Below are positions 15,644 through 63,944 of a stretch of 64,000 bases of DNA, one piece after another. The stretch comes from Candidatus Woesebacteria bacterium (GTDB taxonomy: Bacteria; Patescibacteriota; Microgenomatia; UBA8517), in NCBI GenBank assembly GCA_963784785.1, contig CAWASW010000001.1:9312-73311 (forward strand). The letters run 5' to 3'. Each line of letters begins with the position of its first letter. Within the stretch, counting starts at the first letter, position 1. A program made the position numbers and the translations under genes. The notes under the pieces were generated by a model, which worked only from the letters and a program-made list of their open reading frames with translations, searched no databases and was not told where the DNA came from.

Positions 15644-16698
15644 AAGTGTTAAAAATTGGCTTTGTCAATTTTACACCACTTAAATATGATGTTGATACAC
15701 CACTTCAGGAGCCTTTAGGAGGTTCAGAATCTGCAATGTGCTATCTTGCCGTTCAAATGGCAAGGGATGGACATAGAGTTACACTTTTTAGAAGAAATGA
15801 AGAAGAATTTACTAAAAGTGGGGTACTACATAAATCAGTAAATAAAATAATTACCACCGACCTTGATTTTTTAATTATACAAAACACTCCATTTTTTGGG
15901 TTACAAATAAAAGAAAAAATTAATCCTAAAACAAAGTTAATATATTGGTCACAACATGCCTCAAATCAACCTGCTGTGGAATGTCTTAAAGACTCTAAGT
16001 TCCAAGATATTTACGATGCAATACTACTTTTAAGTGATTACCAAATTGAGGATTATAAAAATGCATTTAAAATTAACCCAACCAAAATAATTAAATTTAA
16101 AAACGCAATTTCACCAGCTTTTGAGAATTTAAATATAGAAAATAAAATCCCATGGTCATATTGCTACACCAGCACGCCATTTAGAGGATTAAAGCTTTTG
16201 CCAGAACTATTTACAAGAGTAAGAGAGGTTAATATTAAGGCAAAACTATTTGTGCATTCAAGCATGGGTACTTATCAAGGAGATAATACAGTGGAGGAAG
16301 AATACCAAGAAATTTATACGGCTATCAAAAACACTGATGGTGCGGTATATAGTGGTTCAATTTCGCAAACTGAACTTTCCGATAAATTATCAAAATATGA
16401 ATATTTGGCCTATCCCAATATTTTTGCTGAAACTTCTTGTATTTCTGTAATGGAAGCTATGGCGGCCGGTTGTCAGGTCGTTACCACCGATCTTGGTGCA
16501 CTACCTGAAACTTCAGCTGGGTTTGCAAGACTTATTAAAATTACAGGTAATGAGGAGGAGTACAAAAGTAGTTTTGTGCGGGAAATGCAAAAACCAATTG
16601 ATAAAAATAGGATAGAAGAACAGGTCAAATTTGTAAGAGAAAATTATACTTGGAAAGTTAGATCTAAAGAGTTGTATACTTTATTACAGAATGTTTGA
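15637..16698 (+). CDS. Glycosyltransferase, GT-B fold (GT4-like)
   Basis: EPLGGSESAMCYLAVQMARDGHRVTLF N-terminal motif and a C-terminal EAMAAGCQVVTTDLGALPE motif typical of GT1/GT4 enzymes. Confidence 0.6.
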   Translation: MVKVLKIGFVNFTPLKYDVDTPLQEPLGGSESAMCYLAVQMARDGHRVTLFRRNEEEFTKSGVLHKSVNKIITTDLDFLIIQNTPFFGLQIKEKINPKTKLIYWSQHASNQPAVECLKDSKFQDIYDAILLLSDYQIEDYKNAFKINPTKIIKFKNAISPAFENLNIENKIPWSYCYTSTPFRGLKLLPELFTRVREVNIKAKLFVHSSMGTYQGDNTVEEEYQEIYTAIKNTDGAVYSGSISQTELSDKLSKYEYLAYPNIFAETSCISVMEAMAAGCQVVTTDLGALPETSAGFARLIKITGNEEEYKSSFVREMQKPIDKNRIEEQVKFVRENYTWKVRSKELYTLLQNV

Positions 16699-17773
16699 TT
16701 TTTTAAATTTCTTTGTAGCTGCTGCCATTTCTTCTTGTACGGTATCCGTTAATCCTGCAAGCTTTGAAAATAATATATCTGATACATTAAATTTTAGTAT
16801 TTCAAATAATGATGAAACAGGTAATCCGATAAGATATATCAGAATTACTTCTCCGTCCTCCAACTTTGTTATAACTTCAGCAAATGGGCCTCAAATTACA
16901 GGCGCTGGAATTAGTGACCAAACAGCAAATATCAAAGTCAATGATATTGATTCTGGTGGGTCTGTTGATATTGGCCTTGGTGTAAATACATTAAATGCAC
17001 AAAATCAGGCTAGCTGGAGTGTTTCTGTTACAGACGATGTTGATGGTAATAATTTAGTTGGGTGCAGTGGAGATACCGGAGTTACCATTACTTCACCTGG
17101 GCAAGCCACGGTAGTAATATCTAATTTATCTGTTGCTGTTTCTGATAGCAGCGCCACAATGTCATGGAGTACAGCGGTTTCTGCCAGTACAATTGTAGAA
17201 TATGGAAAGACCGAGCAATATGGAAGTACCGCAACAGGAACCTCAGAGACTAATCATTCTATAAATTTACCAAGTCTATCTGCAGATACTCAGTATTATT
17301 ACCGTGTAACAAATACTGATGCAGTTGGGAATGTAGCACAAGTCTCAGGAAATTTTAGAACTGCGGTGGCAGGAATAAATACTGAAACAATAGTCACAAC
17401 AACTACGACGGTTACTAATACTGTAAATGTTACAAAAACTTTAGTAGATACTACGCCACCAACAATTCGATTTAAAACTACATTTAAAAAAATATATGAA
17501 GAGGCACCTTTAATTGAAATAGTTTCAACCGATGGGACGGGGATAGCAAGAGTTGAATATTCAATAGATGGGGGAAAGAACTACATACCTATCGGCATTG
17601 AAACTGTTGGAAGTAAACAATTAGTTTCAGAATTTACTCCAGACGCAGTCGAAGATGGAGATTATTCATTACAGGTTAGAGTGACCGATACTACGGGAAA
17701 TAGGACTCTATCTAAAGAAATAAAATTTACGATAGACAGGCTCCCCCGAGACCGTTACATTTCGGTCTCCTAA
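16691..17773 (+). CDS. 5' portion of a surface protein gene (FN3 and Ig-like domains) split by the MITE insertion; its last 9 codons and stop come from the MITE
   Basis: FN3-like segment SATMSWSTAVSASTIVEYGKTEQYGST...DTQYYYRVTNTDAVGN. Removing the MITE and one TSD copy restores an in-frame junction ...FTIDRLP|PRVGPLTVMAGP... with ORF 17930..18700. Confidence 0.55.
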   Translation: MFDFLNFFVAAAISSCTVSVNPASFENNISDTLNFSISNNDETGNPIRYIRITSPSSNFVITSANGPQITGAGISDQTANIKVNDIDSGGSVDIGLGVNTLNAQNQASWSVSVTDDVDGNNLVGCSGDTGVTITSPGQATVVISNLSVAVSDSSATMSWSTAVSASTIVEYGKTEQYGSTATGTSETNHSINLPSLSADTQYYYRVTNTDAVGNVAQVSGNFRTAVAGINTETIVTTTTTVTNTVNVTKTLVDTTPPTIRFKTTFKKIYEEAPLIEIVSTDGTGIARVEYSIDGGKNYIPIGIETVGSKQLVSEFTPDAVEDGDYSLQVRVTDTTGNRTLSKEIKFTIDRLPRDRYISVS

Positions 17774-17942
17774 AACACACTGATTTTACTATACTTTCGG
17801 CCTAAAAAGGTAGTTTCACTAAGTAAACGCTTCTACAACCAATTTCAGCATTGTCCGAGTAATCGGACGAAAGTGTTATTATTTTAACGAAAAACAACAA
17901 ATCATTTAAGGCTAAACAAGTGACCGTTTATGCAACGGTATC
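17748..17942 (-). mobile_element. MITE copy A (about 195 bp), flanked by a 9-bp TSD GGCTCCCCC; inverted relative to copy B
   Basis: 100% identical, reverse-complemented, to 21089..21281. Termini match the TIRs of the IS at 24734..25904. The interior has three hairpins (GAGACCG-N8-CGGTCTC, GTCCGA-ttac-TCGGAC, ACCGTT-N6-AACGGT). The direct repeat GGCTCCCCC abuts both ends. Confidence 0.65.
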
Positions 17943-18700
17943 GGCTCCCCCCGCGTGTTGGGCCTCTTACAGTCATGGCTGGGCCAATTTCTATAAATAG
18001 CGGTATCTCCGAAATAACGGAATTATTGGTAGGTGTTGAGTATAAATTTATACTAACTGCAGCAGGAGGACCTAATAAAATTAATATGAAATGTAAAGAC
18101 AATATTTATAAATTTACAAAAAATAACGACGTAGGAGTTTGGACAACTAAAGTTAAGTTTTCAGAAGAAGGACAATATTTACCTGAAATAGTTGCAGAGG
18201 ACGGAGCAGGAAACATAGAAACAGTGAACAGTGAACAATTGAAAGTTAACGGTTTAGGAAAACTCAAAAATGGAATAATCACTGTTTACTGGTACGATAA
18301 TTTTGAGAAAAAATTTGTGAAGTGGGATGCAGAACCTTATGGACAAGTTAATCCAATTAATACTAATGACTTAGCTGGTTATTCTATATTGTTACCAAGT
18401 GGAAAGTATTATCTTGAGGCAAAAGCTATTGGAAAAAGAACAAGTGTAACTAATATTATAGAGACTCATGAAACAGTTTATATAAATGACGATTGGGAGC
18501 TATCACCGTCATGGAAATTTTGGCAATTTAGAGAACAGAAAATTGTTAATCCTAAAAAGCTTGGTAATGAATCTTGGAAGGATGTTAGTTTTGCTCTTCC
18601 AAAAGTTAACTTAAATAATTTATCGACCTTAGATATTCGAGGAAAAAAACAGTTGTCAGTTTGTTATCTTCATGGCATCCATCTACAAATGATTATCTAA
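17930..18700 (+). CDS. 3' portion of the MITE-split surface protein (Ig-like repeats), reading from an ATG supplied by the MITE terminus
   Basis: Begins atgcaacggtatc|ggctcccc, with the first 13 nt in the MITE. In frame with ORF 16691..17773 once the MITE is removed. AEDGAGN/VTDTTGN Ig-like repeats continue the upstream domain pattern. Confidence 0.5.
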   Translation: MQRYRLPPRVGPLTVMAGPISINSGISEITELLVGVEYKFILTAAGGPNKINMKCKDNIYKFTKNNDVGVWTTKVKFSEEGQYLPEIVAEDGAGNIETVNSEQLKVNGLGKLKNGIITVYWYDNFEKKFVKWDAEPYGQVNPINTNDLAGYSILLPSGKYYLEAKAIGKRTSVTNIIETHETVYINDDWELSPSWKFWQFREQKIVNPKKLGNESWKDVSFALPKVNLNNLSTLDIRGKKQLSVCYLHGIHLQMII

Positions 18701-18966
18701 AAGTAATCGATGAATTAATTAAAAATAAATATAGTGCTTTCCCAATTTTGGTGCAAGAAAAAGAGACATCTGCAACAGCTCTCGAAAGAAGAGGCAAATA
18801 TGGAGCTAATATTTATGCTGATCCAGACGGAGAGATTTTAAATGAAGTTGTCATCTCTGGTTTGCCAACAACTTGGATAGTCAATAGATTTGGACAGGTT
18901 GTAAAAACAAAGGTAGGTGGAATATCCTTTCAGGAAGTGCTTGAAGTACTGAATAGTATAGATTAA
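18661..18966 (+). CDS. TlpA/thioredoxin-like (redoxin) C-terminal segment lacking the CxxC cysteines; joined to 17930..18700 through a frameshift at an A7 run near 18640
   Basis: GLPTTWIVNRFGQVVKTKVGGISFQEVLEVL matches the C-terminal end of TlpA/ResA redoxins. The position of WCPPC reads SSWHPST. One extra A in the ggAAAAAAAcag run fuses the frames (DIRGKKKTVVSLLSSWHPST...). Confidence 0.45.
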   Translation: MLSSWHPSTNDYLKVIDELIKNKYSAFPILVQEKETSATALERRGKYGANIYADPDGEILNEVVISGLPTTWIVNRFGQVVKTKVGGISFQEVLEVLNSID

Positions 18967-19064
18967 CAGATTGCTTCACTTTTGTTCGCAATGACACACA
19001 TAAAAGTATGTACTAAAAGTTATTGGCTTATCAAATTGGGAGTTAGTGCAAGAACAGTCAAACG

Positions 19065-19394
19065 CTATATCAAGTTAATTAATTTCTGGATTTCCTGCAT
19101 GTGTTTTTGAATTGTTTCTTGGTCACGAAAATTTTTTGAAAAATTAGCTAGCCATGGTAATGTTTTCAATATTGATTCTTTTGTTGGATTATCAAAATCT
19201 CCGTTAGTTTCCTCAAAAGCTTGGCTTATAATTTGGGTACAATACAGCCTATTGGAAGTTTCATCAACCTTTTCAGTTAAGTCTGATATCTCTGTTTGAT
19301 TACAATGGGCATCGTAGAAACAACTAACTAAAGCACCTTTTACCATTTCTGGAGTAATTTCTTTTGTTGTATCAATGCTGTAAATCAAACTCAT
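19065..19394 (-). CDS. Hypothetical protein (109 aa)
   Basis: ORF only; no motif recognised. Confidence 0.35.
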   Translation of the reverse strand: MSLIYSIDTTKEITPEMVKGALVSCFYDAHCNQTEISDLTEKVDETSNRLYCTQIISQAFEETNGDFDNPTKESILKTLPWLANFSKNFRDQETIQKHMQEIQKLINLI

Positions 19395-19440
19395 TAGTTT
19401 AATTGTACTACAAATAATGTATTATTAAATAATACTGCCC

Positions 19441-20937
19441 ATGTGGATAATATTTGCCTTAGAAAATTTATATTTTGCTTTAAATATCTTTGCTTCTCTT
19501 ACTTTTTTTTCAGTAGCTTGGCTTTACTTTGATGCGTGGAAGGCCTTGAGATCAAACAGAGAAATTTGGAAGATTGTAGCCTTTATTATTTTAGGAATAT
19601 CTTTTTTGTTTCGAGGAATGGACATGAGAGGTGTTGAAATTTTTCAAAGCTTAGATATTTACTTGAGAGCTTTAGGCTATATGCTGTTAGTTGTAGGTTT
19701 AGTTATAGATCCACTCCAACCTCGTCCTGAGGACGATCGGCCTTTGGCTGATAAAAATATGGCATTTGTTTTGATCGCTTTTCCTCCACTTTTTTTCTTG
19801 TCACCAGTATTAGCTGCAATAGTTGCAGTTCTGTATTTAAGACGGGCTAGTATTGGGCTTGAACGTCATATTTACCCACCTGCAATCTCTTTCTTTTCTC
19901 TATCTATTTATGAATTAACTTTTAGCTTAAATAGTTTTAGAGTTACTGATAATTTAAATTTATTTAATATTTTGGCTCCATTTGGGCCTATGTGGTTGGC
20001 CAATTTAGCATTTTTATTTTTAGCAATTTTATTTTTAGGAAGATGGGTTTTTAGATATTTACTAAAACAATTTCAGTCTCAACTTTTTATGGTTATGATG
20101 AGTTTGGTTTTGTCAGTTTATTTAATAGTTACAGTTAGTTTTACTGGTCTTCTTCTAAACAATTTAAAGACTCAGATACTACAAGAACTTACATCAGAAG
20201 CTAAAGTTTTGGAATTTGCATTTAATGCAAAAAAGAGTGAACTACTGTCACTAGCACAACTTCTTGCAAGGTCGGACCCTGCAGGTTTGGCAGGGTCCGA
20301 CCTTAACACGAGCTCTCACGATTCTTTAGTTGTTTTTGACAAAGATGGCCTTGTCACATATCGTGCTGAAGACACCGAGAGGAAAGGGGATTCGATTTCG
20401 GGGGATAATTTAGTCAAGCAAGTTTTGTCTGGCAAGGAAAATTCAAACATAGTAGTTAAAGAAGGAGTAACGGCTCCAACAGTAATGATAGTTTCAGGTG
20501 CTCCAATAATGGCAAACGGAGTAGTCAGTGGTGGCGTTATCGTCGGTGATTTGATTGATAACTCATATCTTGAGGGTTTTAGTAAGCTAACAGGACTTAA
20601 ATCTGCAGTCTATGGAAATAATATATTAAGTGCAGGTGGAACCGTTGGAATTACTGAAACTGATTCTAAGATAAAAGAGACGGTTTTAACAAAAGGTGAA
20701 ACCGTAGCTCTTGAAAATAGATGGTTAAATTATGCTTTCTTGTCTGTTTATTCGCCACTTAAAGACGTTGACGGAAACCCTGTAGGAATGTACTTTGTAG
20801 GTCGCCCTCAAGTAGAAGTTTTAAATCTTGCTAGTAAAACTTTGGAGTCGGTTTTCTTGGGTACAATCTTCTTGTTGTTATTATCGATGATACCTGCAAA
20901 GCTTATAGCAAATAGTATTACAAAACAAATTAAATGA
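19441..20937 (+). CDS. Polytopic membrane protein with C-terminal extracytoplasmic sensor-like domain and terminal TM, no output domain (truncated-sensor-like)
   Basis: Multiple N-terminal TM helices, a roughly 200-aa soluble region, then TM VFLGTIFLLLLSMIPAKLIA; ends just before a non-coding stretch and MITE-B. Confidence 0.5.
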   Translation: MWIIFALENLYFALNIFASLTFFSVAWLYFDAWKALRSNREIWKIVAFIILGISFLFRGMDMRGVEIFQSLDIYLRALGYMLLVVGLVIDPLQPRPEDDRPLADKNMAFVLIAFPPLFFLSPVLAAIVAVLYLRRASIGLERHIYPPAISFFSLSIYELTFSLNSFRVTDNLNLFNILAPFGPMWLANLAFLFLAILFLGRWVFRYLLKQFQSQLFMVMMSLVLSVYLIVTVSFTGLLLNNLKTQILQELTSEAKVLEFAFNAKKSELLSLAQLLARSDPAGLAGSDLNTSSHDSLVVFDKDGLVTYRAEDTERKGDSISGDNLVKQVLSGKENSNIVVKEGVTAPTVMIVSGAPIMANGVVSGGVIVGDLIDNSYLEGFSKLTGLKSAVYGNNILSAGGTVGITETDSKIKETVLTKGETVALENRWLNYAFLSVYSPLKDVDGNPVGMYFVGRPQVEVLNLASKTLESVFLGTIFLLLLSMIPAKLIANSITKQIK

Positions 20938-21043
20938 CGGACAAAATTATATTTAGTATAGGGATTTTTATTAGTTTGGTAATTGTGTGTACAAGTGGGT
21001 TTTTGTTTTATAAAACCCAAACAGTTAAAATTGCAAGTGACGA

Positions 21044-21064
21044 GTTACGAGTTACGAGTATTCA
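21044..21064. repeat. Heptanucleotide tandem repeat (ACGAGTT x3)
   Basis: acgagttacgagttacgagta read directly from the sequence. Confidence 0.6.
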
Positions 21065-21088
21065 AACCCCTGAACCGACGATGAAAGA

Positions 21089-21281
21089 TACCGTTGCATA
21101 AACGGTCACTTGTTTAGCCTTAAATGATTTGTTGTTTTTCGTTAAAATAATAACACTTTCGTCCGATTACTCGGACAATGCTGAAATTGGTTGTAGAAGC
21201 GTTTACTTAGTGAAACTACCTTTTTAGGCCGAAAGTATAGTAAAATCAGTGTGTTTTAGGAGACCGAAATGTAACGGTCTC
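21089..21281 (+). mobile_element. MITE copy B, flanked by a 9-bp TSD ACGATGAAA
   Basis: Exact reverse complement of 17748..17942; ACGATGAAA is present on both sides. Confidence 0.65.
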
Positions 21282-21284
21282 ACG

Positions 21285-21539
21285 ATGAAACCACAGCCAC
21301 AGATAGATTACAAAAACATTGAAATAGAAGTATTAAATGGGTCGGGAATAAGTGGGCAGGCAAAAATATTTGCTAATAAATTAGAAAAACTTGGCTACAC
21401 AAAAGTTTCAACTGGTAATTATAAAGAAATAGTTGATCGTGGTTTATTGCTTGCTCCAACTGACTTCGGTAAAGAAATTAACATGGTTGATTACATCTAT
21501 CAAAAAGATGAAAAGACAAAAATAATAATTTCAAAATGA
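21285..21539 (+). CDS. LytR_C-like (LCP C-terminal) small domain protein
   Basis: IEIEVLNGSGISGQAKIFANKLEKLGYTKVSTGNY matches the LytR C-terminal domain signature (V.NGtg..GlA..vA..L...Gf.v...gNa). ATG at 21285 lies in the MITE TSD; the ORF-track start at 21249 is inside the MITE. Confidence 0.45.
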   Translation: MKPQPQIDYKNIEIEVLNGSGISGQAKIFANKLEKLGYTKVSTGNYKEIVDRGLLLAPTDFGKEINMVDYIYQKDEKTKIIISK

Positions 21540-21628
21540 AAAACTTTTCTTTATCTAACAAAGTTGTTAGTATGTGCTAAGTTTAGTTTGGTATTTACAT
21601 TTGACGAATCAGTTGCTAAATTATAATT

Positions 21629-21935
21629 ATGTCAACCAAAGTTCTAATTACAGAAGATGATCCTTTGATGAGTAGAATGTATCAAAAGATTTTTACTTTT
21701 GAGGGTTATGAAGTAATTATGGCAGGGAACGGTGAAGAAGGCCTTGAAAAAGCTAAGCTCGAAAAACCTACAATAATTCTTCTTGATGTCATGATGCCAA
21801 AAATGAATGGGTTACAGATGCTTGAGAAACTCAAGCTTGATCCAGATACCAAAAAAATTCCTGTAATTATGCTTACTAATTTGGCTGGCGAAAAAGATGC
21901 AGAAAATGCAATGAGTAAAGGTGCAGTAAAATATA
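21629..21935 (+). pseudogene. CheY-like single-domain response regulator truncated by IS insertion; the displaced 3' end lies at 23067..23169
   Basis: REC domain motifs (ITEDD, ILLDVMMPKMNG, IPVIMLTN, K in AMSKGAVKY) end at the IS boundary. After the IS, the duplicated 8 bp continues the original frame: ...AVKYIVKSEFEPKQIVDMVKEILAGYTRDSIPETK*. Confidence 0.65.
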
Positions 21936-21963
21936 GGCTTAATGGAACTAATGTGTTGTTTTT

Positions 21964-22491
21964 CTAATCCTGTTTTGTTTTATTATCGGCCTTCATTTTT
22001 TCAAAGTTGTAATAATATACAAACCATTTAAGGTAACTTTCCCAACGAGTCTTTTTAAGGCCTTTATGTCTTAACCATCTTTGTCCTATATGCCCAAATG
22101 TAGCTTCAATTTCATTTGTTGTTTTTGGCATAGTTGGGTGGTCTAAAAACTTGAATGAGGTTTTTGGAAGTTTAATTAGGATCCTGACAGCTTTTCTCAC
22201 ACCTTTATGAATATACCAACTGTGGCCAGAATCATCTGTCCTCATCTCTTTCAGAAAGAAGAAATTAGCCTTAACCCAATCTTTTAAGATTGTTTCCCAG
22301 TATTTCAAAGCTTCATGACTTTCTATGAACCAAATGTGGTTTGCAATTTTTATTAATTCTTCAATTCTTCTATCTTTTGAGTGTCTACCAAGTGCATTTA
22401 CAATATCTCTATGCATATGAGCAAGACATATCTGATGTGGAGAGTGGGGGATACACTTCATCAACCGCAGAACAAATGGCAGTTCCTCCAT
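21964..22491 (-). CDS. Transposase C-terminal part (+1 frame relative to 22409..22987; junction at a C5 run)
   Basis: HQICLAHMHRDIVNAL continues the alignment with the 24752 transposase (VWQLCQNHYKHNL). Frames fuse if the C-run in tatCCCCCactc is one shorter. Confidence 0.6.
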   Translation of the reverse strand: MEELPFVLRLMKCIPHSPHQICLAHMHRDIVNALGRHSKDRRIEELIKIANHIWFIESHEALKYWETILKDWVKANFFFLKEMRTDDSGHSWYIHKGVRKAVRILIKLPKTSFKFLDHPTMPKTTNEIEATFGHIGQRWLRHKGLKKTRWESYLKWFVYYYNFEKMKADNKTKQD

Positions 22492-22987
22492 CTGTTACAG
22501 AGCCTGAAAATGTGTATTTTAATTCCTCCTTTATGAACCTCAAATCCTTAACTATTTTTGTTGAAGCCTCTCTACCAGCAATAGATACATGCAAAAGGTA
22601 CAAAGTTCCACTTTGTCTATACAGCATCAAGACAAACCATCTTCCAAACCAAAGCCCATCAATCAAAAGATATGCAGTATCAATTCTTCCAGACAAAGTT
22701 TGATCAAATCTAGGAAGTTTTGGAGGATCAAGAAGCAATAACTTATGAAATTCACCCTCCAAATATCTTACAGACAAACCTGAGACAGAAGACAGCATTT
22801 CATATGTCAAACCCCACAAAATATACTGTCTGAAAAGATCAACTACTTTAAAATCTTTCTTTTTATTGTGGTAAATTCTTGAAGTTTTACAAACTTTACA
22901 AAACCATCTTTTCTTTCCAGTTCCAGTCTTTCCCCACAGAAACATTTTACTATTACAGGATATGCACAAAAGTGTTCTTTGACCCAT
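22409..22987 (-). CDS. Transposase N-terminal part (C4 zinc finger, HTH, start of DDE domain)
   Basis: CISCNSKMFLWGKTGTGKKRWFCKVCKTS zinc finger; LLIDGLWFGRWFVLMLYRQSGTLYLLHVSIAGRE aligns with LLVDGKYVKVKGYDRKIPVIYGIDYLTHDIVHFVFGPSE of the 24752 transposase. Confidence 0.65.
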   Translation of the reverse strand: MGQRTLLCISCNSKMFLWGKTGTGKKRWFCKVCKTSRIYHNKKKDFKVVDLFRQYILWGLTYEMLSSVSGLSVRYLEGEFHKLLLLDPPKLPRFDQTLSGRIDTAYLLIDGLWFGRWFVLMLYRQSGTLYLLHVSIAGREASTKIVKDLRFIKEELKYTFSGSVTDGGTAICSAVDEVYPPLSTSDMSCSYA

Positions 22988-23193
22988 TGAATACTATTCA
23001 AACTCAAAATGAGGCGTATTATCAACTATATCTTTCTGTTATATCAACACACTATGCTATTAAGCCAAAATATATTGTAAAGTCTGAATTTGAGCCAAAA
23101 CAAATTGTAGATATGGTTAAAGAAATCTTAGCAGGTTACACAAGAGACTCAATTCCTGAAACAAAGTAATATTTTAACATCGTACGTACTCCA

Positions 23194-23805
23194 TCAAAAT
23201 ATCACATTAAAATAGTCATAGGTTAGTCCTGTTCTACCAGTCCAGTTGGTAGCAAAATCTGAAGCTCCTTTTGAATACCTATAAGCACCAGTCGATAATT
23301 CTTTTTGTATAAACCAGGCGCCGTCTTTATTCACGAATCCGTAATAAACATCAATACCTGAATCGTCAATTTCAGTAATATTGTAGCCGTCTGTAGGTTT
23401 CTTTTCCGATGGGTCTATGAGGACACCTGTGCTATTTTTAACTGATATAGATCCAGGACCGGGCATGCTACCAAAAAAAGAAGCTTCAGCTTTTCTGGTA
23501 AATACTGTCATCAAGAATAACGAACCTCCAGCAGCACCAATTAGTTTTAAAAATTTACGTCGTTCAGGATCGTAGTCCGTATTTTCAATTTTCTTGATAT
23601 TATCAGGAATTATGTCCAACACTGGCTCAAAACTCAAAGTTTTTGCTTTTCTTGGAATTATTAATGTTGCAAAATAAAAGGCAAGAGGAGTAAATATTAT
23701 CGCAGTGATCAACTCTGGTACGCTGGAAGCAGATAAAATTCCTGTTACCGCCATAAAAGAGGTAACTACAAATGCATAAAAGGTAATTATTTTTCGTATA
23801 ATCAT
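23194..23805 (-). CDS. Protein with an internal canonical twin-arginine signal; likely a Tat substrate whose true start is an internal TTG near 23630
   Basis: DPERRKFLKLIGAAGGSLFLMTVFTRKAEA|SFFG gives SRRxFLK, an h-region and an AxA site. Upstream of it the ORF encodes two TM helices that may be a separate small ORF. Confidence 0.45.
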   Translation of the reverse strand: MIIRKIITFYAFVVTSFMAVTGILSASSVPELITAIIFTPLAFYFATLIIPRKAKTLSFEPVLDIIPDNIKKIENTDYDPERRKFLKLIGAAGGSLFLMTVFTRKAEASFFGSMPGPGSISVKNSTGVLIDPSEKKPTDGYNITEIDDSGIDVYYGFVNKDGAWFIQKELSTGAYRYSKGASDFATNWTGRTGLTYDYFNVIF

Positions 23806-24005
23806 AATATTTTGTTTAACGAAACCAAAGACAATATTAGTATCACACTTGCAAAATAAAATAGTAATTTTTTATTTTTTGCAAGATTGAATTCGTTTGA
23901 ATTTGTTAGAAGAGTTGCAACCAAATACGCTGTTATCGGCAAAAAAAGATATGAATTTATTGAAATAAACGCTGAAACTAATATCAAAAATAATAAATAA
24001 ATCAT
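23802..24005 (-). CDS. Small membrane protein (67 aa)
   Basis: Two hydrophobic helices; weak. Confidence 0.3.
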   Translation of the reverse strand: MIYLLFLILVSAFISINSYLFLPITAYLVATLLTNSNEFNLAKNKKLLFYFASVILILSLVSLNKIL

Positions 24006-24271
24006 GGTAATGGTGTAGCTAATAATAACCCATTTGATTCAATAGATTCTCTTAACGCTCTAATTTCAGCCCGTATAAGTAATAGTTCAGGCTGAGAATT
24101 TGGTAAAGCTGTGGAAGTTGCACCAGGCATTGGTGTTTTGACTAATTGAGTAATAATGGTAGTTGGCTTTTCGGTAGTTTTACTTACTTTAGAAATTATA
24201 ATAATGGAGAATGCCATATTTAAAATACATAAAAAGAAAATAATAACTAAAACTCTAGAGTACTTTTCCAT
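24002..24271 (-). CDS. Small membrane-anchored protein (89 aa)
   Basis: N-terminal TM; weak. Confidence 0.3.
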   Translation of the reverse strand: MEKYSRVLVIIFFLCILNMAFSIIIISKVSKTTEKPTTIITQLVKTPMPGATSTALPNSQPELLLIRAEIRALRESIESNGLLLATPLP

Positions 24272-24323
24272 AATATAAATATTACCACTTTACAAAGAGA
24301 TTAAAATTATGTAAATTACCAAT

Positions 24324-24668
24324 ATGGTCAAAGGAAAGGCAGCTAAAAAAATTAACAAAACAGTAAAGGTGTCTAACATTTTAGAGGCATTTAATGTAGA
24401 GATGATTAATGATCAAATAGTTGAATTAAGAGCAGATATGTCTCGATGTGTAAATGAGTCTATTTCCGTTTCCATATTATCTTTGTTGTTATTTATTGGT
24501 TCGCCTTCAGTTTTTCCTGAAATAATTAACCCTTATCTGCCATCTTCTTTAAAGATAATGCAGGCATTTGTTGCAATTCCTGTAATATTTTGGGTAATAA
24601 CAAGTTTGGGCAATATGGTTCGTTATTTTAAGATACTAAAACTTAAAGATTCCGCTTCCTTACGTTAA
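24324..24668 (+). CDS. Hypothetical membrane protein (114 aa)
   Basis: Two TM segments; weak. Confidence 0.3.
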   Translation: MVKGKAAKKINKTVKVSNILEAFNVEMINDQIVELRADMSRCVNESISVSILSLLLFIGSPSVFPEIINPYLPSSLKIMQAFVAIPVIFWVITSLGNMVRYFKILKLKDSASLR

Positions 24669-24733
24669 TTCAAAGTTGTTTAGTCCTAAAAAGATAGTAT
24701 GATTAATACATGCTCTCTATTAGAACAAAAGTA

Positions 24734-25904
24734 GATACCGTTCATAAACGGTCACTTGATAAGCTTCAGAACGTCTTCAATTTTGTAATTGTCTTTTAAA
24801 GTTTGTTGTAACGATGATTTTCCATTTAGTTTTTTAAATTGTTTGGTGCAGTCTGTAAATGGTTTTAATCGCCTTTTTAAAAAATAAGCATTGAGCCAGA
24901 GTTTCGCTGTTTTGTAGTTTTGAAAACCTTTGATTGTTTTAAGCCTGCCTTGAAGATGTGAGTTGAAACTTTCGATTAAGTTGTTTGTTCTTGGAATGTG
25001 AGGCATCTTTGTATATGCAAAAAGATCAGCTGATCTTTTTGCAATATCAAGCATAACTTTTTTGCATAAATCATCTTTGGTTGCATATTTGTTGTATATT
25101 TTTGAAGCTCTACTTTTAAAATCTTCAGTTGATATTTTGTTTGAAAATAATGTTTCAATTTCATTCATAAAAGGTCTGTAAGTTGGGTCATTGTTTAAAT
25201 TTAAAGTTGTTCTTAAATTGTGTTTGTAGTGGTTTTGGCACAGTTGCCAGACTGCAGTGGGATAAACACTTAAACACGCCTGTGGCGTGTTCTGGTTGTC
25301 ATCTGAAATAATTGCTTGAAGTGGATAATTTGCAAGCTTTAGTGAAGAGAAAAACTTAAGAAGTAAGCTGTAATTTTCTGAAGGTCCAAAGACAAAATGG
25401 ACTATATCATGTGTAAGGTAATCAATGCCATAAATAACAGGGATTTTTCTGTCATAGCCTTTGACTTTGACATATTTGCCATCAACTAAAAGTATCCCAC
25501 AAAACCTGTTGCAATAATTTCTTGTGATATCAATACAAAGTGGCAATCTTTCTAAAACTTCAAAGTAAGCTTCATATGATTTTCCAACTGATATTTTTAA
25601 ATCATCTGCAATTGTTCTAAAAGATAAACCTGACATGTGAGATAACAACAACTTTGAAGAATTTAACTTCTTAGCTCTATTTATTTGAAAATAGCAACCA
25701 CAATCTTTGCAAAAATACTTTAATTTCCCACGTCTAACACCTTTTTTAATTACATCTTTTGAAGAACATCTAGGACAACTATAAACTCTTTTTTCATGCC
25801 TGAATGATACCAGAATTAAGAAAGCTTCACATAGTCAAAACACCAACTTGGATGGAATTATAGGGATTAACTACCAAAATAAGTGACCAAAAATGAACGG
25901 TCTC
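24734..25904 (-). mobile_element. IS element (about 1171 bp) of the same zinc-finger/DDE family; parent of the 195-bp MITE; 24-bp imperfect TIRs; 9-bp TSD ACAAAAGTA
   Basis: Left end GATACCGTTCATAAACGGTCACTTG (24734-24758) against right end AAGTGACCAAAAATGAACGGTCTC (25881-25904). ACAAAAGTA is directly repeated at 24725-24733 and 25905-25913. MITE termini match these ends. Confidence 0.65.
24752..25797 (-). CDS. Transposase (zinc finger + HTH + DDE, about 349 aa), needs a +1 A in an A6 tract directly after the ATG
   Basis: The frame upstream of the track ORF encodes (K)RVYSCPRCSSKDVIKKGVRRGKLKYFCKDCGCYFQINRAKK... The only ATG (25795-25797) sits one frame off: atgAAAAAAgag. Seven A's would give MKKRVYSCPRC... 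Confidence 0.55.
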
Positions 25905-27392
25905 ACAAAAGTAATATTAATTTTAGCTATTGGTACACTTTTTATATTAATTTCTTCAATTGTTTTTACCTCAAAGTTGATTGGTCAGAAATTAGATGAA
26001 CTAGAAGTCCGTAGTGCTGTAATAGACTTACAGAGGATAGATGGAGCTATAGCTTCCGAAAAAAGTAATTTATTGGATAAAATATCTGATTGGGCTTCTT
26101 GGGATGATACATATCAGTTTGTAAAAGATAATAATACTGCTTATATAAAATCAAATTTACAGCAGACTACCTTTGATAGTTTAAGACTTAGCTTTATGAT
26201 CTTCTTGGACGTCAATGGTAATACAGTGCATGAAGTAAAAGCCCCCGTTGGTATTAATAAATATTTAGTAAAAGATGAATTTTTGTTGAAATTTGATAGT
26301 TTAAAGTCAAATAAGTCAGGCATGATAATGCTTCCTGATGGTATGTATTTGGTTGCTTCTAAACAAATACTTAATAGTGCTTCTGAAGGTCCGGCAAGAG
26401 GAACATTAATTTTTGGTAGGTACTTCGGTAAGCAAGAAATAGATAAAATAGCAATTTCAACTAAACATGATGAAATTAGATTGCTTTCGATGGGTTCTCA
26501 AAAAATGAATGACACAGAAATAACTAACACTAATGAAAATATCTTATCTGCTAAAAATGTTGTAAAAGACATTTTTGGTAAAAATATTGCATATTATGTT
26601 GTAGACATAGAACGTGGAATTCATCTACAGGGAATTCAGAGTACTCAATATACGATTGGGTTTTTGATAGGTATTAGCATTATTTTCTTTGTAATGGTTT
26701 TATTTTTCTTAGCATCTCTCGTTTTGTCTCCACTTAAAAAAATATCATCAGATGCAAATAACATAACTCAGTCTAAAAACTTTATGCTTCGAGTGAAACA
26801 TGAATCTAAAGATGAAATTGGGCTACTTTCAAGAAATATAAACGAAATGCTTGACTCACTCCAGTTGGCAAAAGATGCCGTCTATTCAGAGACCGAAAAA
26901 ATTAAGACATTTTTCGATGTCGTTTCGGGAATAGTAGTGGTTATTAACAAAGATGGTGTTGTCGTTTCTGTTAATCAAAAAGGCGCAGAATTTTTAGAAT
27001 ATGAAACAAATGAGATCGTTGGTAGGAATTGGTTTGACGTCTTTATCCCAGAGGAAGATAAAGAAAAAATGAAGCAAACATTTGTCGACATGGTTACTAA
27101 TATCAGCGCAGACAAAAATAAATATTTTGAAAATCTAGTTGTTACAAAGTCCGGTAAAAAATATTTAATGGGATGGCACAATAGTTTGTTGCTAGACAGA
27201 AATAGGAATATCCTAGCATCTGTCAGTCACGGAGAAGATATTACGGACAAAAGGAAGATAGAAGATGATGAAAAATCACAAAAAGAAGAGCTGGAAAAAT
27301 TAAACCAACTAATGATGGGTAGAGAGATTAAAATGATTGAACTTAAAAAGGAAATTGAAAAATTGAAACAGAAAGATGAAAATACGCAATAG
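25893..27392 (+). CDS. Membrane signal-transduction protein (TM - periplasmic sensor - TM - HAMP-like - PAS - coiled coil; no kinase domain) with an IS-derived start codon
   Basis: PAS-like core FFDVVSGIVVVINKDGVVVSVNQKGAEFLEYETNEIVGRNWFDVF. Its ATG lies 12 nt inside the IS right end. The original start MLSIRTKV... is at 24710, on the other side of the IS. Confidence 0.55.
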   Translation: MNGLTKVILILAIGTLFILISSIVFTSKLIGQKLDELEVRSAVIDLQRIDGAIASEKSNLLDKISDWASWDDTYQFVKDNNTAYIKSNLQQTTFDSLRLSFMIFLDVNGNTVHEVKAPVGINKYLVKDEFLLKFDSLKSNKSGMIMLPDGMYLVASKQILNSASEGPARGTLIFGRYFGKQEIDKIAISTKHDEIRLLSMGSQKMNDTEITNTNENILSAKNVVKDIFGKNIAYYVVDIERGIHLQGIQSTQYTIGFLIGISIIFFVMVLFFLASLVLSPLKKISSDANNITQSKNFMLRVKHESKDEIGLLSRNINEMLDSLQLAKDAVYSETEKIKTFFDVVSGIVVVINKDGVVVSVNQKGAEFLEYETNEIVGRNWFDVFIPEEDKEKMKQTFVDMVTNISADKNKYFENLVVTKSGKKYLMGWHNSLLLDRNRNILASVSHGEDITDKRKIEDDEKSQKEELEKLNQLMMGREIKMIELKKEIEKLKQKDENTQ

Positions 27393-28185
27393 AATATTAG
27401 TAACAATACTTTCAGTTGTCATCCTGATTGTTGGACTGGACTCGGTAATAATTTTCTTTTTTGCCCAAAAATATTTAAGTACTGCTTCACAAAATTTGCT
27501 TACAACAACATCTAGATCCAAATCAGAAAACATTTCGACGCTAATTAATGAACAAAAACAGAATGTAATTGATATTGCAACAGCATCAATATTTAGGGAT
27601 TATTATGTTGATACTACAAATATTGTAAATAAAGATAAAGTGCAGCAAAGACTTGAGAGGACAATAAAGGGAAATCCGGCAATTAGGGAGATATATATAC
27701 TCGATGTTTCAGGAGTTGTTCTCTTATCAACTGATGAGGAAGACTTTGGGAAAAATATTATGGCGGATGACAACATTGCAGAGGCCAAAAATGGGCCAAG
27801 TGTTGGAAACGTACGTTTATATGGTGATGACAAAAAAACAATTTATACAATTTCCGCACCGATTTTTAACTCCTCATCGATTCTTGCTGGTATTTTTGTT
27901 GTACGTTTTAATACTAATTTTATAAATACTATAGTTTCTAGTGGATCTGAAACAACAAAAAGTGAAGATGTTTTTTTAGTTGATAAAAATTATTATTTCT
28001 TAACACCAACACGATATTACAATCAGGATGCGGTTTTGTCAAAAAAAGCTGAAACATTAAACGTTCAAAGATGTTTTTCTCAGGACGAAATAATATATGT
28101 TTCGGAGCGATTGACTGGACAAAGATATGTAAATGAACATCGTGGGCATCCTGCAATAACTTTAGCTCATTTTGGCTACACATAA
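27376..28185 (+). CDS. N-terminal part of a sensor histidine kinase (TM + Cache-like extracytoplasmic domain)
   Basis: N-terminal TM then a roughly 230-aa sensor domain; overlaps the next ORF at a T4 run. Confidence 0.5.
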   Translation: MKIRNRILVTILSVVILIVGLDSVIIFFFAQKYLSTASQNLLTTTSRSKSENISTLINEQKQNVIDIATASIFRDYYVDTTNIVNKDKVQQRLERTIKGNPAIREIYILDVSGVVLLSTDEEDFGKNIMADDNIAEAKNGPSVGNVRLYGDDKKTIYTISAPIFNSSSILAGIFVVRFNTNFINTIVSSGSETTKSEDVFLVDKNYYFLTPTRYYNQDAVLSKKAETLNVQRCFSQDEIIYVSERLTGQRYVNEHRGHPAITLAHFGYT

Positions 28186-29737
28186 TTATATTCCTGAAAT
28201 CTCGGCCTGTTTGATTGCAAAAATTGATAAAACTGAAATCAACACTCCTATTTTTAATTCTGCTGTTGCAATTATTGCCACGATGGGTTTGGGTGTGGCC
28301 ATAATCGCTATTATTATTAACTTTTTTTTGAATAAGATTGTTGGTCCGCTTGAGAGTTTGAAAAAGGGAGCTGAAGAGCTTCAGAACGGAAACCTAGAAG
28401 CTGTGATTAAAATCGATTCCAATGATGAAATAGGTGAAGTATCCAAGGCGTTTAACTCCATGGCCGTAAAACTTAATGAGTTATACAAAAATCTTGAGTT
28501 AAAAGTTACGGACAGAACTTTGGAGTTAAATAGCAAATTGTTGCAAATTGAAGATCAAAACAAAAAACTTGACCAAAATAAATCAGCAATGCTTAATTTA
28601 CTAGAAGATTCTAAGACACTTGAAGAGGAATTAAAAGCTGAAAAGCAATCAGTTGAAAAGAAAATTATTGAAAGAACTAGAGAAGTTGATGAAGAAAAGA
28701 CAAAGCTGATGGCCGCTATTGAGGCTTTAACAAAAGCTTTTGTCATGATGGACTTAAATGGAGAAATTATTCTTGTAAATGAAAATCTTAATAAAATTTT
28801 TAATTTAGAGAAACAGAATTGGTTAATATCTGACATACAAGAACAATTAGGCGACAGTTTTGATTTTGTAAAAGCATATAAAAACAATATTCTTGAAAAG
28901 AAAAAGATGGTATATGACGATATAGCATTAGGTTCGAAAATCTTACAAATTCGTTTTAGCCCAGTTTTTGATAAAGATAAAGTGAATGGCGTACTTGCAA
29001 TAATTGGAGACGTAACTGATGAAAAAGTGTTGGCAAGATCCAAAGACGAATTCTTTTCAATAGCCAGTCATGAATTAAGAACTCCTCTTACTGCAATAAG
29101 AGGAAATACCTCAATGATGCTTGATTATTACAAGGAGTCATTTAAAGATCCTGAATTAAATCAGATGCTTTTAGATACTCATGAGGCTAGTGTCAGATTA
29201 ATAGGCATCGTAAATGACTTCTTAGACATGAGTAGGTTAGAGCTTAGTAAGATAGAATTTAAAATGGAAAAAATTATCTTGGGTGATCTCATTGGAGAAG
29301 TTTTGAAAGAATATAAGGTTACAGGTTTACAAAATAAGTTGTATTTGAAATTTGTTGAGTCAAAGACAGAAATACCGGCTGTAAACGCTGATGTTAATAG
29401 AGTTAAACAAGTTGTAATTAATCTTATTGGAAATAGCGTTAAGTTTACTAAAGAAGGTGGTATATCTATTAGCTTGACTTATAACAACGATTTTGTAGAA
29501 GTGCATGTAGCCGATACTGGCTATGGAATACCTCTTGCAAATCAGTCATTGCTGTTTAGAAAATTTCAACAAGCTGGAGATAGTACCTTAACTAGAGATG
29601 GTGCCAAAGGTACTGGCCTTGGACTATACATCTCTAAACTTATGGTTGAGGGTATGGGAGGTAAGATATTTTTGGAAAAATCAGAGGAAAATAAAGGTTC
29701 TACTTTTACATTTAGCCTGCCTGTTTTTAAAAAGTAG
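28172..29737 (+). CDS. Sensor histidine kinase core (TM, HAMP, coiled coil, PAS, HisKA, HATPase_c)
   Basis: HAMP: LESLKKGAEELQNGNLEAVIKIDSNDEIGEVSKAFNSMAVKL. H-box: FFSIASHELRTPLTAIRGN. N/G boxes: INLIGNSVKFT, DTGYGIP, GTGLGLYISK. Confidence 0.75.
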   Translation: MATHNYIPEISACLIAKIDKTEINTPIFNSAVAIIATMGLGVAIIAIIINFFLNKIVGPLESLKKGAEELQNGNLEAVIKIDSNDEIGEVSKAFNSMAVKLNELYKNLELKVTDRTLELNSKLLQIEDQNKKLDQNKSAMLNLLEDSKTLEEELKAEKQSVEKKIIERTREVDEEKTKLMAAIEALTKAFVMMDLNGEIILVNENLNKIFNLEKQNWLISDIQEQLGDSFDFVKAYKNNILEKKKMVYDDIALGSKILQIRFSPVFDKDKVNGVLAIIGDVTDEKVLARSKDEFFSIASHELRTPLTAIRGNTSMMLDYYKESFKDPELNQMLLDTHEASVRLIGIVNDFLDMSRLELSKIEFKMEKIILGDLIGEVLKEYKVTGLQNKLYLKFVESKTEIPAVNADVNRVKQVVINLIGNSVKFTKEGGISISLTYNNDFVEVHVADTGYGIPLANQSLLFRKFQQAGDSTLTRDGAKGTGLGLYISKLMVEGMGGKIFLEKSEENKGSTFTFSLPVFKK

Positions 29738-39003: not shown

Positions 39004-39074
39004 GGGCTGTTAGTATAGTGGTAATACACATCATTCGCATTGATGAAACGCCGGTCCAATTCCGGCACAGTCCA
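39004..39074 (+). tRNA. tRNA-Ala (anticodon CGC)
   Basis: Hand-folded cloverleaf: acceptor GGGCTGT/ACAGTCC with G3:U70 (Ala identity); D-stem GTAT/ATAC; anticodon stem CATCA/TGATG with loop TTCGCAT giving anticodon CGC; T-stem GCCGG/CCGGC; discriminator A; no encoded CCA. Confidence 0.75.
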
Positions 39075-49077: not shown

Positions 49078-49106
49078 TGTGTCATTGCGAGCGAAGCGTG
49101 GCAATC
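49078..49106 (+). repeat. 29-nt repeat TGTGTCATTGCGAGCGAAGCGTGGCAATC (copy 1), abutting the copy B IS insertion
   Basis: Reverse-complement copy at 63916..63944. Contains an imperfect hairpin ATTGC-GAG-CG-AAG-CG-TGG-GCAAT. Confidence 0.55.
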
Positions 49107-49137
49107 CTAGGCTTAATGGAACTAATGTGTTGTTTTT

Positions 49138-49665
49138 CTAATCCTGTTTTGTTTTATTATCGGCCTTCATTTTTTCAAAGTTGTAATAATATACAAACCA
49201 TTTAAGGTAACTTTCCCAACGAGTCTTTTTAAGGCCTTTATGTCTTAACCATCTTTGTCCTATATGCCCAAATGTAGCTTCAATTTCATTTGTTGTTTTT
49301 GGCATAGTTGGGTGGTCTAAAAACTTGAATGAGGTTTTTGGAAGTTTAATTAGGATCCTGACAGCTTTTCTCACACCTTTATGAATATACCAACTGTGGC
49401 CAGAATCATCTGTCCTCATCTCTTTCAGAAAGAAGAAATTAGCCTTAACCCAATCTTTTAAGATTGTTTCCCAGTATTTCAAAGCTTCATGACTTTCTAT
49501 GAACCAAATGTGGTTTGCAATTTTTATTAATTCTTCAATTCTTCTATCTTTTGAGTGTCTACCAAGTGCATTTACAATATCTCTATGCATATGAGCAAGA
49601 CATATCTGATGTGGAGAGTGGGGGATACACTTCATCAACCGCAGAACAAATGGCAGTTCCTCCAT
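49138..49665 (-). CDS. Transposase C-terminal part (copy B)
   Basis: Identical to 21964..22491. Confidence 0.6.
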   Translation of the reverse strand: MEELPFVLRLMKCIPHSPHQICLAHMHRDIVNALGRHSKDRRIEELIKIANHIWFIESHEALKYWETILKDWVKANFFFLKEMRTDDSGHSWYIHKGVRKAVRILIKLPKTSFKFLDHPTMPKTTNEIEATFGHIGQRWLRHKGLKKTRWESYLKWFVYYYNFEKMKADNKTKQD

Positions 49666-50161
49666 CTGTTACAGAGCCTGAAAATGTGTATTTTAATTCC
49701 TCCTTTATGAACCTCAAATCCTTAACTATTTTTGTTGAAGCCTCTCTACCAGCAATAGATACATGCAAAAGGTACAAAGTTCCACTTTGTCTATACAGCA
49801 TCAAGACAAACCATCTTCCAAACCAAAGCCCATCAATCAAAAGATATGCAGTATCAATTCTTCCAGACAAAGTTTGATCAAATCTAGGAAGTTTTGGAGG
49901 ATCAAGAAGCAATAACTTATGAAATTCACCCTCCAAATATCTTACAGACAAACCTGAGACAGAAGACAGCATTTCATATGTCAAACCCCACAAAATATAC
50001 TGTCTGAAAAGATCAACTACTTTAAAATCTTTCTTTTTATTGTGGTAAATTCTTGAAGTTTTACAAACTTTACAAAACCATCTTTTCTTTCCAGTTCCAG
50101 TCTTTCCCCACAGAAACATTTTACTATTACAGGATATGCACAAAAGTGTTCTTTGACCCAT
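49583..50161 (-). CDS. Transposase N-terminal part (copy B)
   Basis: Identical to 22409..22987. Confidence 0.65.
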   Translation of the reverse strand: MGQRTLLCISCNSKMFLWGKTGTGKKRWFCKVCKTSRIYHNKKKDFKVVDLFRQYILWGLTYEMLSSVSGLSVRYLEGEFHKLLLLDPPKLPRFDQTLSGRIDTAYLLIDGLWFGRWFVLMLYRQSGTLYLLHVSIAGREASTKIVKDLRFIKEELKYTFSGSVTDGGTAICSAVDEVYPPLSTSDMSCSYA

Positions 50162-50245
50162 TGAATACTATTCAAACTCAAAATGAGGCGTATTATCAAC
50201 TATATCTTTCTGTTATATCAACACACTATGCTATTAAGCCCAATC

Positions 50246-63915: not shown

Positions 63916-63944
63916 GATTGCCACGCTTCGCTCGCAATGACACA
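63916..63944 (-). repeat. 29-nt repeat, copy 2 (inverted)
   Basis: Exact reverse complement of 49078..49106 by eye. Confidence 0.55.

Follow-up and report, generated by a model that had tools for sequence, protein, structure and literature searches.

Insertion sequences (ISs) are known to activate neighbouring genes through outward or hybrid promoters, as described for IS256 at llm and mecA and for ISAba1 at ampC (PMC9330008), and in-frame intragenic insertions of MITEs (miniature inverted-repeat transposable elements) and other repeats, such as Rickettsia palindromic elements (RPEs), ERIC and BOX, give rise to translational fusions (PMC10969869). Here we describe an insertion sequence, designated IS-A, that lies near the 5' end of a membrane sensor gene in a stretch of 64,000 nucleotides of contig CAWASW010000001.1 from a Candidatus Woesebacteria bacterium; this whole stretch is referred to below as the window. 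The locus resembles IS-promoter activation in that the IS lies directly 5' of the gene body and part of the expression signals comes from the IS terminus. It differs in that IS-A gives a start codon and not a promoter, the geometry of its -35-like sequence being incompatible with use of the ATG, and in that IS-A sits inside the coding sequence, so that the putative native promoter and the native start are removed from the gene instead of new signals being added to it. As in intragenic repeat fusions, a mobile-element terminus adds in-frame codons to a host open reading frame (ORF), and the same holds for a MITE in the window (MITE-1). However, RPE-type elements are read through within a continuous protein, whereas IS-A and the 195-bp MITE split the gene, and the downstream ORF needs a restart at the terminal ATG. 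The components of the locus are covered by these precedents, and no new mechanism is required.

With regard to the element itself, the closest described group comprises the zinc-ribbon variants of the IS256 family (IS1249 group, IS256_Zn_var). IS-A is similar to them in its single Mutator/IS256-type DDE transposase, its size, its repeats and its target duplication, but differs in scoring far below the equivalog cut-offs, in having no match among solved structures, in a zinc ribbon that lacks a canonical start, and in its Patescibacteria host.

The present structure of the locus is probably the outcome of a recent, fortuitously in-frame insertion of IS-A into a decaying two-component locus, with the sensor gene being a nascent pseudogene that looks intact.

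Boundaries of IS-A and target site duplication

The features that define the insertion are the following.

24734..25904, minus strand (transposase strand): insertion sequence IS-A, 1171 bp, with ends fixed by three independent copies and family assigned through Pfam and NCBIfam
24725..24733: target-site duplication ACAAAAGTA (9 bp), left copy, corresponding to native codons 6-8 (T K V)
25905..25913: target-site duplication ACAAAAGTA (9 bp), right copy
24734..24757: right inverted repeat (IRR), the transposase-downstream end, GATACCGTTCATAAACGGTCACTT, whose complement holds an outward ATG 12 nt from the tip
25881..25904: left inverted repeat (IRL), the transposase-upstream end, AAGTGACCAAAAATGAACGGTCTC, including the ATG that now heads the sensor ORF

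The two ends of IS-A form the best inverted repeat of the region, imperfect over 24 nt (79% complementary). Three copies of the element were found in metagenomes from other sequencing runs, two of them 89.7% identical to the window copy (L083 and L084) and one 88.4% identical (L085). L083 and L084 align to window positions 25904..24734 and L085 to 25904..24733, and in each case the alignment stops there; L084 is a contig of 1171 nt consisting of exactly IS-A, and L083 and L085 run on into unrelated flanks. The 24 nt of IRL are identical in all three copies despite an overall divergence of about 11% from the window copy, and IRR is identical in L084 and L085.

The 9-mer ACAAAAGTA occurs four times in the 64-kb window (35% G+C), compared with about 1.8 occurrences expected. 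The word alone is not rare; two copies abutting both repeat tips cannot be chance. A perfect 9-bp duplication flanks all three elements of the IS-A type in the window, namely IS-A and two MITEs. The same genome is also represented by a Logan contig (L080), which matches the window over 4518 nt at 100% identity. It begins at window position 25875, 30 nt inside the IS-A end; we take a break at this distance to be what is expected of a k=31 de Bruijn assembly entering a repeat.

Reconstruction of the sensor gene

The insertion divides the sensor gene into two parts.

24710..24799, plus strand: stranded native 5' end of the sensor gene, encoding MLSIRTKV (24710..24733) and running into IS-A as a 29-codon ORF that ends at TAA
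25893..27392, plus strand: present sensor ORF, 499 aa, with a first transmembrane segment (TM1), CHASE4, a second transmembrane segment (TM2), HAMP, PAS and a coiled coil

The present protein, which would include the peptide MNGLTKVILILAIGTLF..., matches the Pfam domains CHASE4 (2e-34), HAMP (5.5e-08) and PAS_9 (5.2e-12) and carries no output domain. Removal of 24734..25904 together with one copy of the duplication yields a single clean ORF of 500 codons starting MLSIRTKVILILAIGTLF, with the N-terminus MLSIRTKVILILAIG... and the empty-site DNA ...ATTAGAACAAAAGTAATATTA.... Six homologues (P0002-P0007), 40-51% identical and 489-509 aa long, are co-linear with the present ORF. The five with complete N-termini (P0002-P0006) start MTIRNKAIVTLAIG, MTIRKKTVLILAIG, MTIRSKAIITLAVG, MTIRNKTILILAIS and MTIRSKILLSLAIA, and the spliced N-terminus aligns with their common pattern MTIR[NKS]K[AT][IVL]..LAIG, in which I4, R5 and K7 are conserved. 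Since the spliced N-terminus matches those of the homologues, the ATG at 24710 is the native start of the sensor. In the present form of the protein, which begins MNGLTKV, I4 and R5 are missing; TM1 and the lysine (K6) ahead of it are kept.

A public-database protein (P0001) is exactly the 499-aa present sensor, and is the sole member of its 90% cluster. The reconstructed 500-aa protein is absent from a collection of 15 billion proteins, a codon-degenerate pattern of the empty-site DNA gave 0 matches in metagenome_contigs, and a scan of genome_contigs for an uninterrupted allele returned relatives of 35% identity or less and nothing closer. At the protein level the closest homologues of the sensor are 46-51% identical. 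Leucyl-tRNA synthetase (LeuRS) places the host in Patescibacteria (Woesebacteria or Microgenomates-like), with a nearest relative only 83% identical, which explains why no empty-site allele was found; the empty-site comparison was made at the level of homologue N-termini.

These results fully support the structural part of a preliminary description of the locus, which had recognised the 9-bp duplication on both sides of 24734..25904, the stranding of the original start at 24710, and a present start at an ATG 12 nt inside the IS terminus; the duplication indeed abuts the repeat tips, the spliced N-terminus matches those of the five homologues, and the new start is read at 25893. Some details are to be revised. 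The insertion, given as 7 codons into the gene, is early as proposed, with a staggered cut that spans codons 6-8, and the N-terminus, said to differ by four residues, has four new residues (MNGL) in place of five native ones (MLSIR). The end next to the sensor, called the right end of the IS, was correctly positioned, but it is the transposase-upstream end and hence IRL by the ISfinder convention. The comparison with related genomes that had been proposed returned no uninterrupted allele in the collections searched, and the homologue N-termini agree with the reconstruction.

The start codon supplied by the terminal repeat

The first start codon of the present sensor ORF lies inside IRL.

25893..25895, plus strand: IS-borne ATG, 12 nt from the tip, leaving IS-A in phase 0

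The frame reads ATG, AAC GGT CTC, the junction, then ACA AAA GTA, for a total of 499 codons; an in-frame TGA is located upstream at 25884, and no stop intervenes between the ATG and the sensor codons. A CAT triplet at positions 10-12 of the IS-A repeats places an outward ATG 12 nt, or four codons, from each tip, the opposite repeat bearing the same ATG on the other strand (ATGAACGGTATC). The terminal 20 nt, with the ATG among them, also close the elements of a second IS clade (L094, L097, L098, L100), in which the transposase has about 51% identity to that of IS-A. Because the ATG is identical in copies that have diverged by about 11% and is common to the clade with about 51% identity, it is fixed in the repeat, a constant part of the conserved transposase-binding terminus and not an adaptation to the sensor gene. 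Its in-frame position here is a one-in-three chance, and fortuitous.

Use of the terminal ATG was surveyed at 15 metagenome junctions. Apart from the insertion at the sensor gene, five class-A junctions had enough flank for this purpose. All five are intergenic: at the junction no frame stays open beyond 56 codons on either side, and ORFs in frame with the terminal ATG are 12-18 aa long. In-frame use of the terminal ATG as a general habit of the family is ruled out by the intergenic position of the surveyed class-A junctions, and the fusion at the sensor gene is an isolated event. Three hits (L087, L089 and L091) were discarded as family junctions, being unrelated chance matches without a transposase.

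The second IS clade (L093, L094, L096-L100) shares the terminal 20-mer GACCAAAAATGAACGGTCTC. One of its members, L099, has a 182-aa ORF in frame with the terminal ATG, and this ORF has an ATG of its own ten codons in. An outward extended -10-like motif is found about 28 nt upstream of the terminal ATG in this clade, as TGATACAAT in L093, L096, L099 and L100 and as variants such as TGGTACAAT in other second-clade contigs. If an IS of this kind drives the expression of adjacent genes, the second clade may be the more promising one.

Expression signals around the sensor gene

Two promoter-like hexamers are of note, one ahead of the insertion and one inside it.

24698..24703, plus strand: TATGAT, a hexamer of the -10 type that precedes the native ATG by 6 nt, matching TATAAT at 5/6 positions
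25857..25862, minus strand: perfect TATAAT, the probable -10 box of the transposase, facing away from the sensor

Shine-Dalgarno motifs are largely lacking across the genes of the window. A -10-like hexamer was found within 45 nt upstream of 18 of the 31 confident gene starts, compared with 26% of random positions, and in 8 of the 31 genes it ends 6-8 nt before the ATG, which is the geometry of leaderless mRNAs. This pattern suggests that leaderless mRNAs may be widespread in the host genome. The TATGAT hexamer would represent the native leaderless-type promoter of the sensor, now stranded 1.18 kb upstream.

Between 24250 and 26100, no sigma-70-like site was found on the plus strand beyond those upstream of a 114-aa ORF. 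Similarly, no plus-strand hexamer matching TATAAT at 5 or more of 6 positions occurs within 312 nt upstream of 25893, the nearest one being at 25575. No Rfam family was detected near the locus, and the sole match in the window is a tRNA-Ala at 39004.

Damage to the partner genes of the signalling module

The closest relative with comparable context (L081, GCA_964429215.1) carries, in this order, genes for a LytR_C protein, a CHASE4 sensor, an NMT1 protein, a dCache histidine kinase, an IVP protein and a response regulator. The window holds orthologues of four of these module genes, the sensor and the three listed below, and all four are damaged.

27376..29737, plus strand: histidine kinase (dCache, HAMP, PAS, HisKA, HATPase), split into ORFs 27376..28185 (269 aa) and 28172..29737 (521 aa)
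20934..21539: LytR_C gene interrupted by MITE-2, 133 aa when spliced, 59% identical to the LytR_C of L081
21629..23169: response-regulator gene interrupted by a second insertion sequence, IS-B, 133 aa when spliced, 88% identical to the L081 regulator over 133 aa

The 776-aa kinase orthologue of L081 aligns to the window in two frames, and deletion of any one base in 28164..28185 produces a single ORF of 786 aa. The Logan contig L080 shows the same split, so that the 1-nt frameshift is probably genuine, as opposed to an error of assembly. Elsewhere in the window, ORFs of great length (2122, 1548 and 1280 aa) are unbroken, and general assembly noise does not account for the lesions. As three further genes of the module are broken, the locus appears no longer to be maintained.

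The gene order also differs between the two genomes. The LytR_C gene of L081 sits directly ahead of the sensor gene and overlaps it, and sensor and kinase are separated by a gene for an NMT1-type binding protein. In the window the response regulator comes after LytR_C, and the sensor is preceded by three small minus-strand genes and the 114-aa ORF, which is unrelated. On comparison of 16691..29737 with L081, no gene corresponding to NMT1 turned up in the window.

Other mobile elements in the window

The window contains two MITEs related to IS-A and two copies of IS-B.

17748..17942: MITE-1, 195 bp, duplication GGCTCCCCC, an inverted copy of MITE-2 that splits a gene for a 601-aa Ig-like surface protein
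21087..21281: MITE-2, 195 bp, duplication ACGATGAAA, inside the LytR_C gene
21936..23066, minus strand: IS-B copy 1, 1131 bp, 8-bp duplication AAAATATA, interrupting the response regulator
49110..50240: IS-B copy 2, 1131 bp, 8-bp duplication CAATCCTA, in an apparently intergenic position

The MITEs are 100% identical, inverted with respect to each other and both intragenic. Their ends, GAGACCGTT... and ...AACGGTATC, match the IS-A termini (27-nt match, 96%); being short and non-coding, with parent-like termini and a target duplication of the same 9-bp length, they have the properties of IS-derived MITEs. The ORF downstream of MITE-1 (17930..18700) starts in frame at an ATG inside the MITE terminus. 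The split surface-protein gene seems to carry a second lesion at about 18646..18700, since homology to the 700-aa protein of L081 goes on beyond the stop at 18700 in a different frame (18685..18963).

The two IS-B copies are likewise 100% identical and encode a zinc-ribbon transposase of the IS1249/IS256-like type. In both copies the transposase is represented by two overlapping ORFs (192 and 175 aa), which suggests a frameshift, either programmed or inactivating. A 29-nt perfect inverted repeat (…cattgcgagcgaagcgtggcaatcc…) is present at 49078..49106 and 63916..63944, one copy of it adjoining IS-B copy 2.

Fate of the sensor gene

In the scenario favoured here, IS-A entered codons 6-8 of a gene for a CHASE4-HAMP-PAS membrane sensor, generating the 9-bp duplication. 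The insertion parted the gene body from its native start and its putative leaderless-type promoter, and the stranded start can make only a 29-codon peptide. With the target cut at a codon boundary the terminal ATG lies in frame, and gene callers report an intact 499-aa protein beginning MNGL-TKV.... Expression of the sensor would need read-through of IS-A, antisense to the transposase, from the stranded or a further-upstream promoter, and the read-through mRNA would then need internal initiation independent of a Shine-Dalgarno motif, as the genome appears generally to use. Judged from these signals, sensor expression is probably much reduced. Because the kinase, the response regulator and LytR_C are also broken and the native promoter and start have been lost, the sensor is most likely a nascent pseudogene, and would no longer be functional or needed.

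Several observations weigh against this interpretation, and most of them favour the alternative that the sensor is still made and working. In that case it would be transcribed from its native promoter or a cryptic IS promoter and translated from the IS-borne ATG by Shine-Dalgarno-free initiation, the exchange of MLSIR for MNGL would be harmless to membrane insertion, and the insertion would have survived as an in-frame one. We regard this as unlikely but far from negligible. The sensor ORF of 499 codons has no internal lesion and agrees in length and order with its homologues, and TM1 is untouched, with the lysine before it kept; the weight of the intact ORF is tempered by the fact that a very recent insertion would show an intact ORF anyway. 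No terminator-like site is present on the plus strand of IS-A, so that read-through is unblocked. The context of the IS-borne ATG has a position weight matrix score equal to the median of the genome's real starts, although this matrix discriminates weakly (-0.95 for true starts versus -4.06 for other ATGs, with a standard deviation of about 4) and does not decide the use of 25893. Local RNA folding at this ATG is ordinary (-5.9 kcal/mol versus a mean of -5.4 for true starts), and the MITE-1 insertion is likewise in frame with a terminal ATG. It should also be considered that Patescibacteria promoters may depart from the sigma-70 consensus used in the scans, and that the frameshift in the kinase might stem from a sequencing error common to both assemblies, which were made from the same reads.

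On the other side, no plus-strand promoter-like site lies within 300 nt upstream of the new start, the leaderless layout has been broken up, and antisense IS RNA that goes untranslated for 1.1 kb would invite premature termination. Even if made, the sensor would have nothing to signal through, its partner kinase, the response regulator and LytR_C being broken, and the conserved I4 and R5 are lost. The terminal ATG is in frame at two of the three insertions in the window; this is expected by chance 26% of the time, and the count supports no conclusion.

A broader proposal is that the outward ATGs, located 12-13 nt from the IS and MITE tips, might give the elements an inbuilt means of restarting translation where the host is independent of Shine-Dalgarno motifs. 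If this were true, the part of a gene downstream of an insertion would stay expressible, intragenic insertion would be cheaper, and the family could spread inside genes; the MNGL-TKV... sensor would then be a functional product. We consider the proposal improbable.

Less credible still is that the IS-A end drives the sensor through a hybrid or outward promoter, with expression gained or rewired as by IS256 at llm and mecA. Fusion promoters formed from an outward -35 in the terminal repeat are documented in the IS256 family (PMC9330008), and a GTGACC sequence, matching TTGACA at 4/6 positions, is present 16 nt from the tip in both IS-A repeats, at 25883..25888 in IRL. However, with GTGACC as the -35 element the ATG falls in the spacer, and the transcript would begin downstream of 25893. 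It would then lose the sole start codon that precedes TM1, as the canonical start that comes next in frame is a TTG downstream of TM1. The flank hexamers at suitable spacing (ACAAAA, CAAAAG, AAAAGT) match TATAAT at 3/6 positions at most, and the sigma-70 scan gave no plus-strand promoter. Moreover, the outward -35 of copy-out/paste-in ISs is carried by the end that is not transposase-upstream (PMC9330008), whereas the sensor adjoins IRL and diverges from the transposase gene. No outward promoter whose transcript would include the start codon was found. The preliminary description had suggested that the gene may be expressed under IS-derived signals; nothing computed in our analysis supports this, and the start codon is the sole IS-derived part.

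Finally, an assembly artefact, in which the repeat was mis-threaded into the contig and no IS exists at this site in the real genome, might be suspected of a metagenome-assembled contig at whose IS-A repeat a second assembler broke, but it was rejected as highly improbable, as a mis-join would not yield a perfect 9-bp direct repeat exactly at both tips or place the missing MLSIR codons (MTIR in relatives) precisely across IS-A, and the independent Logan assembly contains the right junction as well.

The IS-A transposase and its family assignment

IS-A contains one long frame.

24752..25795, minus strand: transposase frame of 347 codons, in which a CxxC...CxxC zinc ribbon precedes a DDE core of the Mutator type

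The core matches Pfam PF00872 (Transposase_mut) over residues 100-299 with E = 6.8e-12 and 45.4 bits, above the curated cut-off of 21, and has the DDE catalytic domain of the IS256/Mutator type. The top NCBIfam matches were NF033543, IS256 family (72.3 bits, 3.5e-20), and NF048019, IS256_Zn_var (47.9 bits, 1e-12), both below the equivalog cut-off of 150 bits. The transposase would accordingly be placed by its domain scores as a distant relative, and not as a certified member, of IS256. The motifs LLVDGKY, ISDDNQ, CQNHYKHN and NLIESFN, read by eye from the sequence, are placed as the IS256 signature expects. No solved structure similar to the transposase by sequence was found at E <= 0.01, and hence no solved transposase of the IS256 family either. 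Its homologues number more than 1,200, and many of them are encoded on contigs of 1.1-1.3 kb, typical of collapsed repeats.

Target duplications of 8-9 bp are characteristic of the IS256 family (ISfinder), and the duplication is 9 bp at IS-A and at both MITEs. Repeats of 24 nt, a length of about 1.2 kb and a 9-bp duplication fit this family; IS-A, with its 24-nt repeats, 1171 bp and one long frame, agrees with the ranges used for comparison (repeats of about 20-40 bp, about 1.2-1.5 kb, one transposase gene). No convincing junction promoter was seen on inspection by eye of the abutted IS-A ends. The most fitting description of IS-A is that of a distant, new member within the IS256/Mutator superfamily.

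The start of the transposase is unusual, as no in-frame ATG, GTG or TTG is present ahead of the zinc ribbon. More distant homologues begin MWLILLSFRHEKR... in the zinc-ribbon frame. An out-of-frame ATG-A6-G at 25797 is conserved in the window copy, L084 and L085, and a -1 shift would enter the zinc-ribbon frame from it; an in-frame ATT-CTG ahead of the zinc ribbon is likewise conserved (25795..25840, minus strand; L084 and L085). In the zinc-ribbon part, synonymous changes outnumber non-synonymous ones 9 to 6 in L084 and 8 to 7 in L085, and synonymous changes are also in excess in the transposase core. Translation of the zinc ribbon seems to need a -1 shift or slippage, or non-canonical initiation. 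The heptamer at the ATG-A6-G is out of the canonical X_XXY_YYZ phase and occurs just three codons in, and a programmed -1 frameshift and a start at the conserved in-frame ATT/CTG are equally possible.

Implications

The locus calls for caution in annotation, since the 499-aa sensor is called intact, yet its first four codons are transposon-derived and the real start, with the putative promoter, lies 1.2 kb away. The window documents a recent burst of mobile elements in a small Patescibacteria genome, involving two IS families and a MITE; the repeated elements have 100% identical copies. Within one two-component module, four genes have been hit. Should restart at the terminal ATG be shown to work, the locus would illustrate how the ends of an IS can make intragenic insertion less costly in hosts that initiate translation independently of Shine-Dalgarno motifs.

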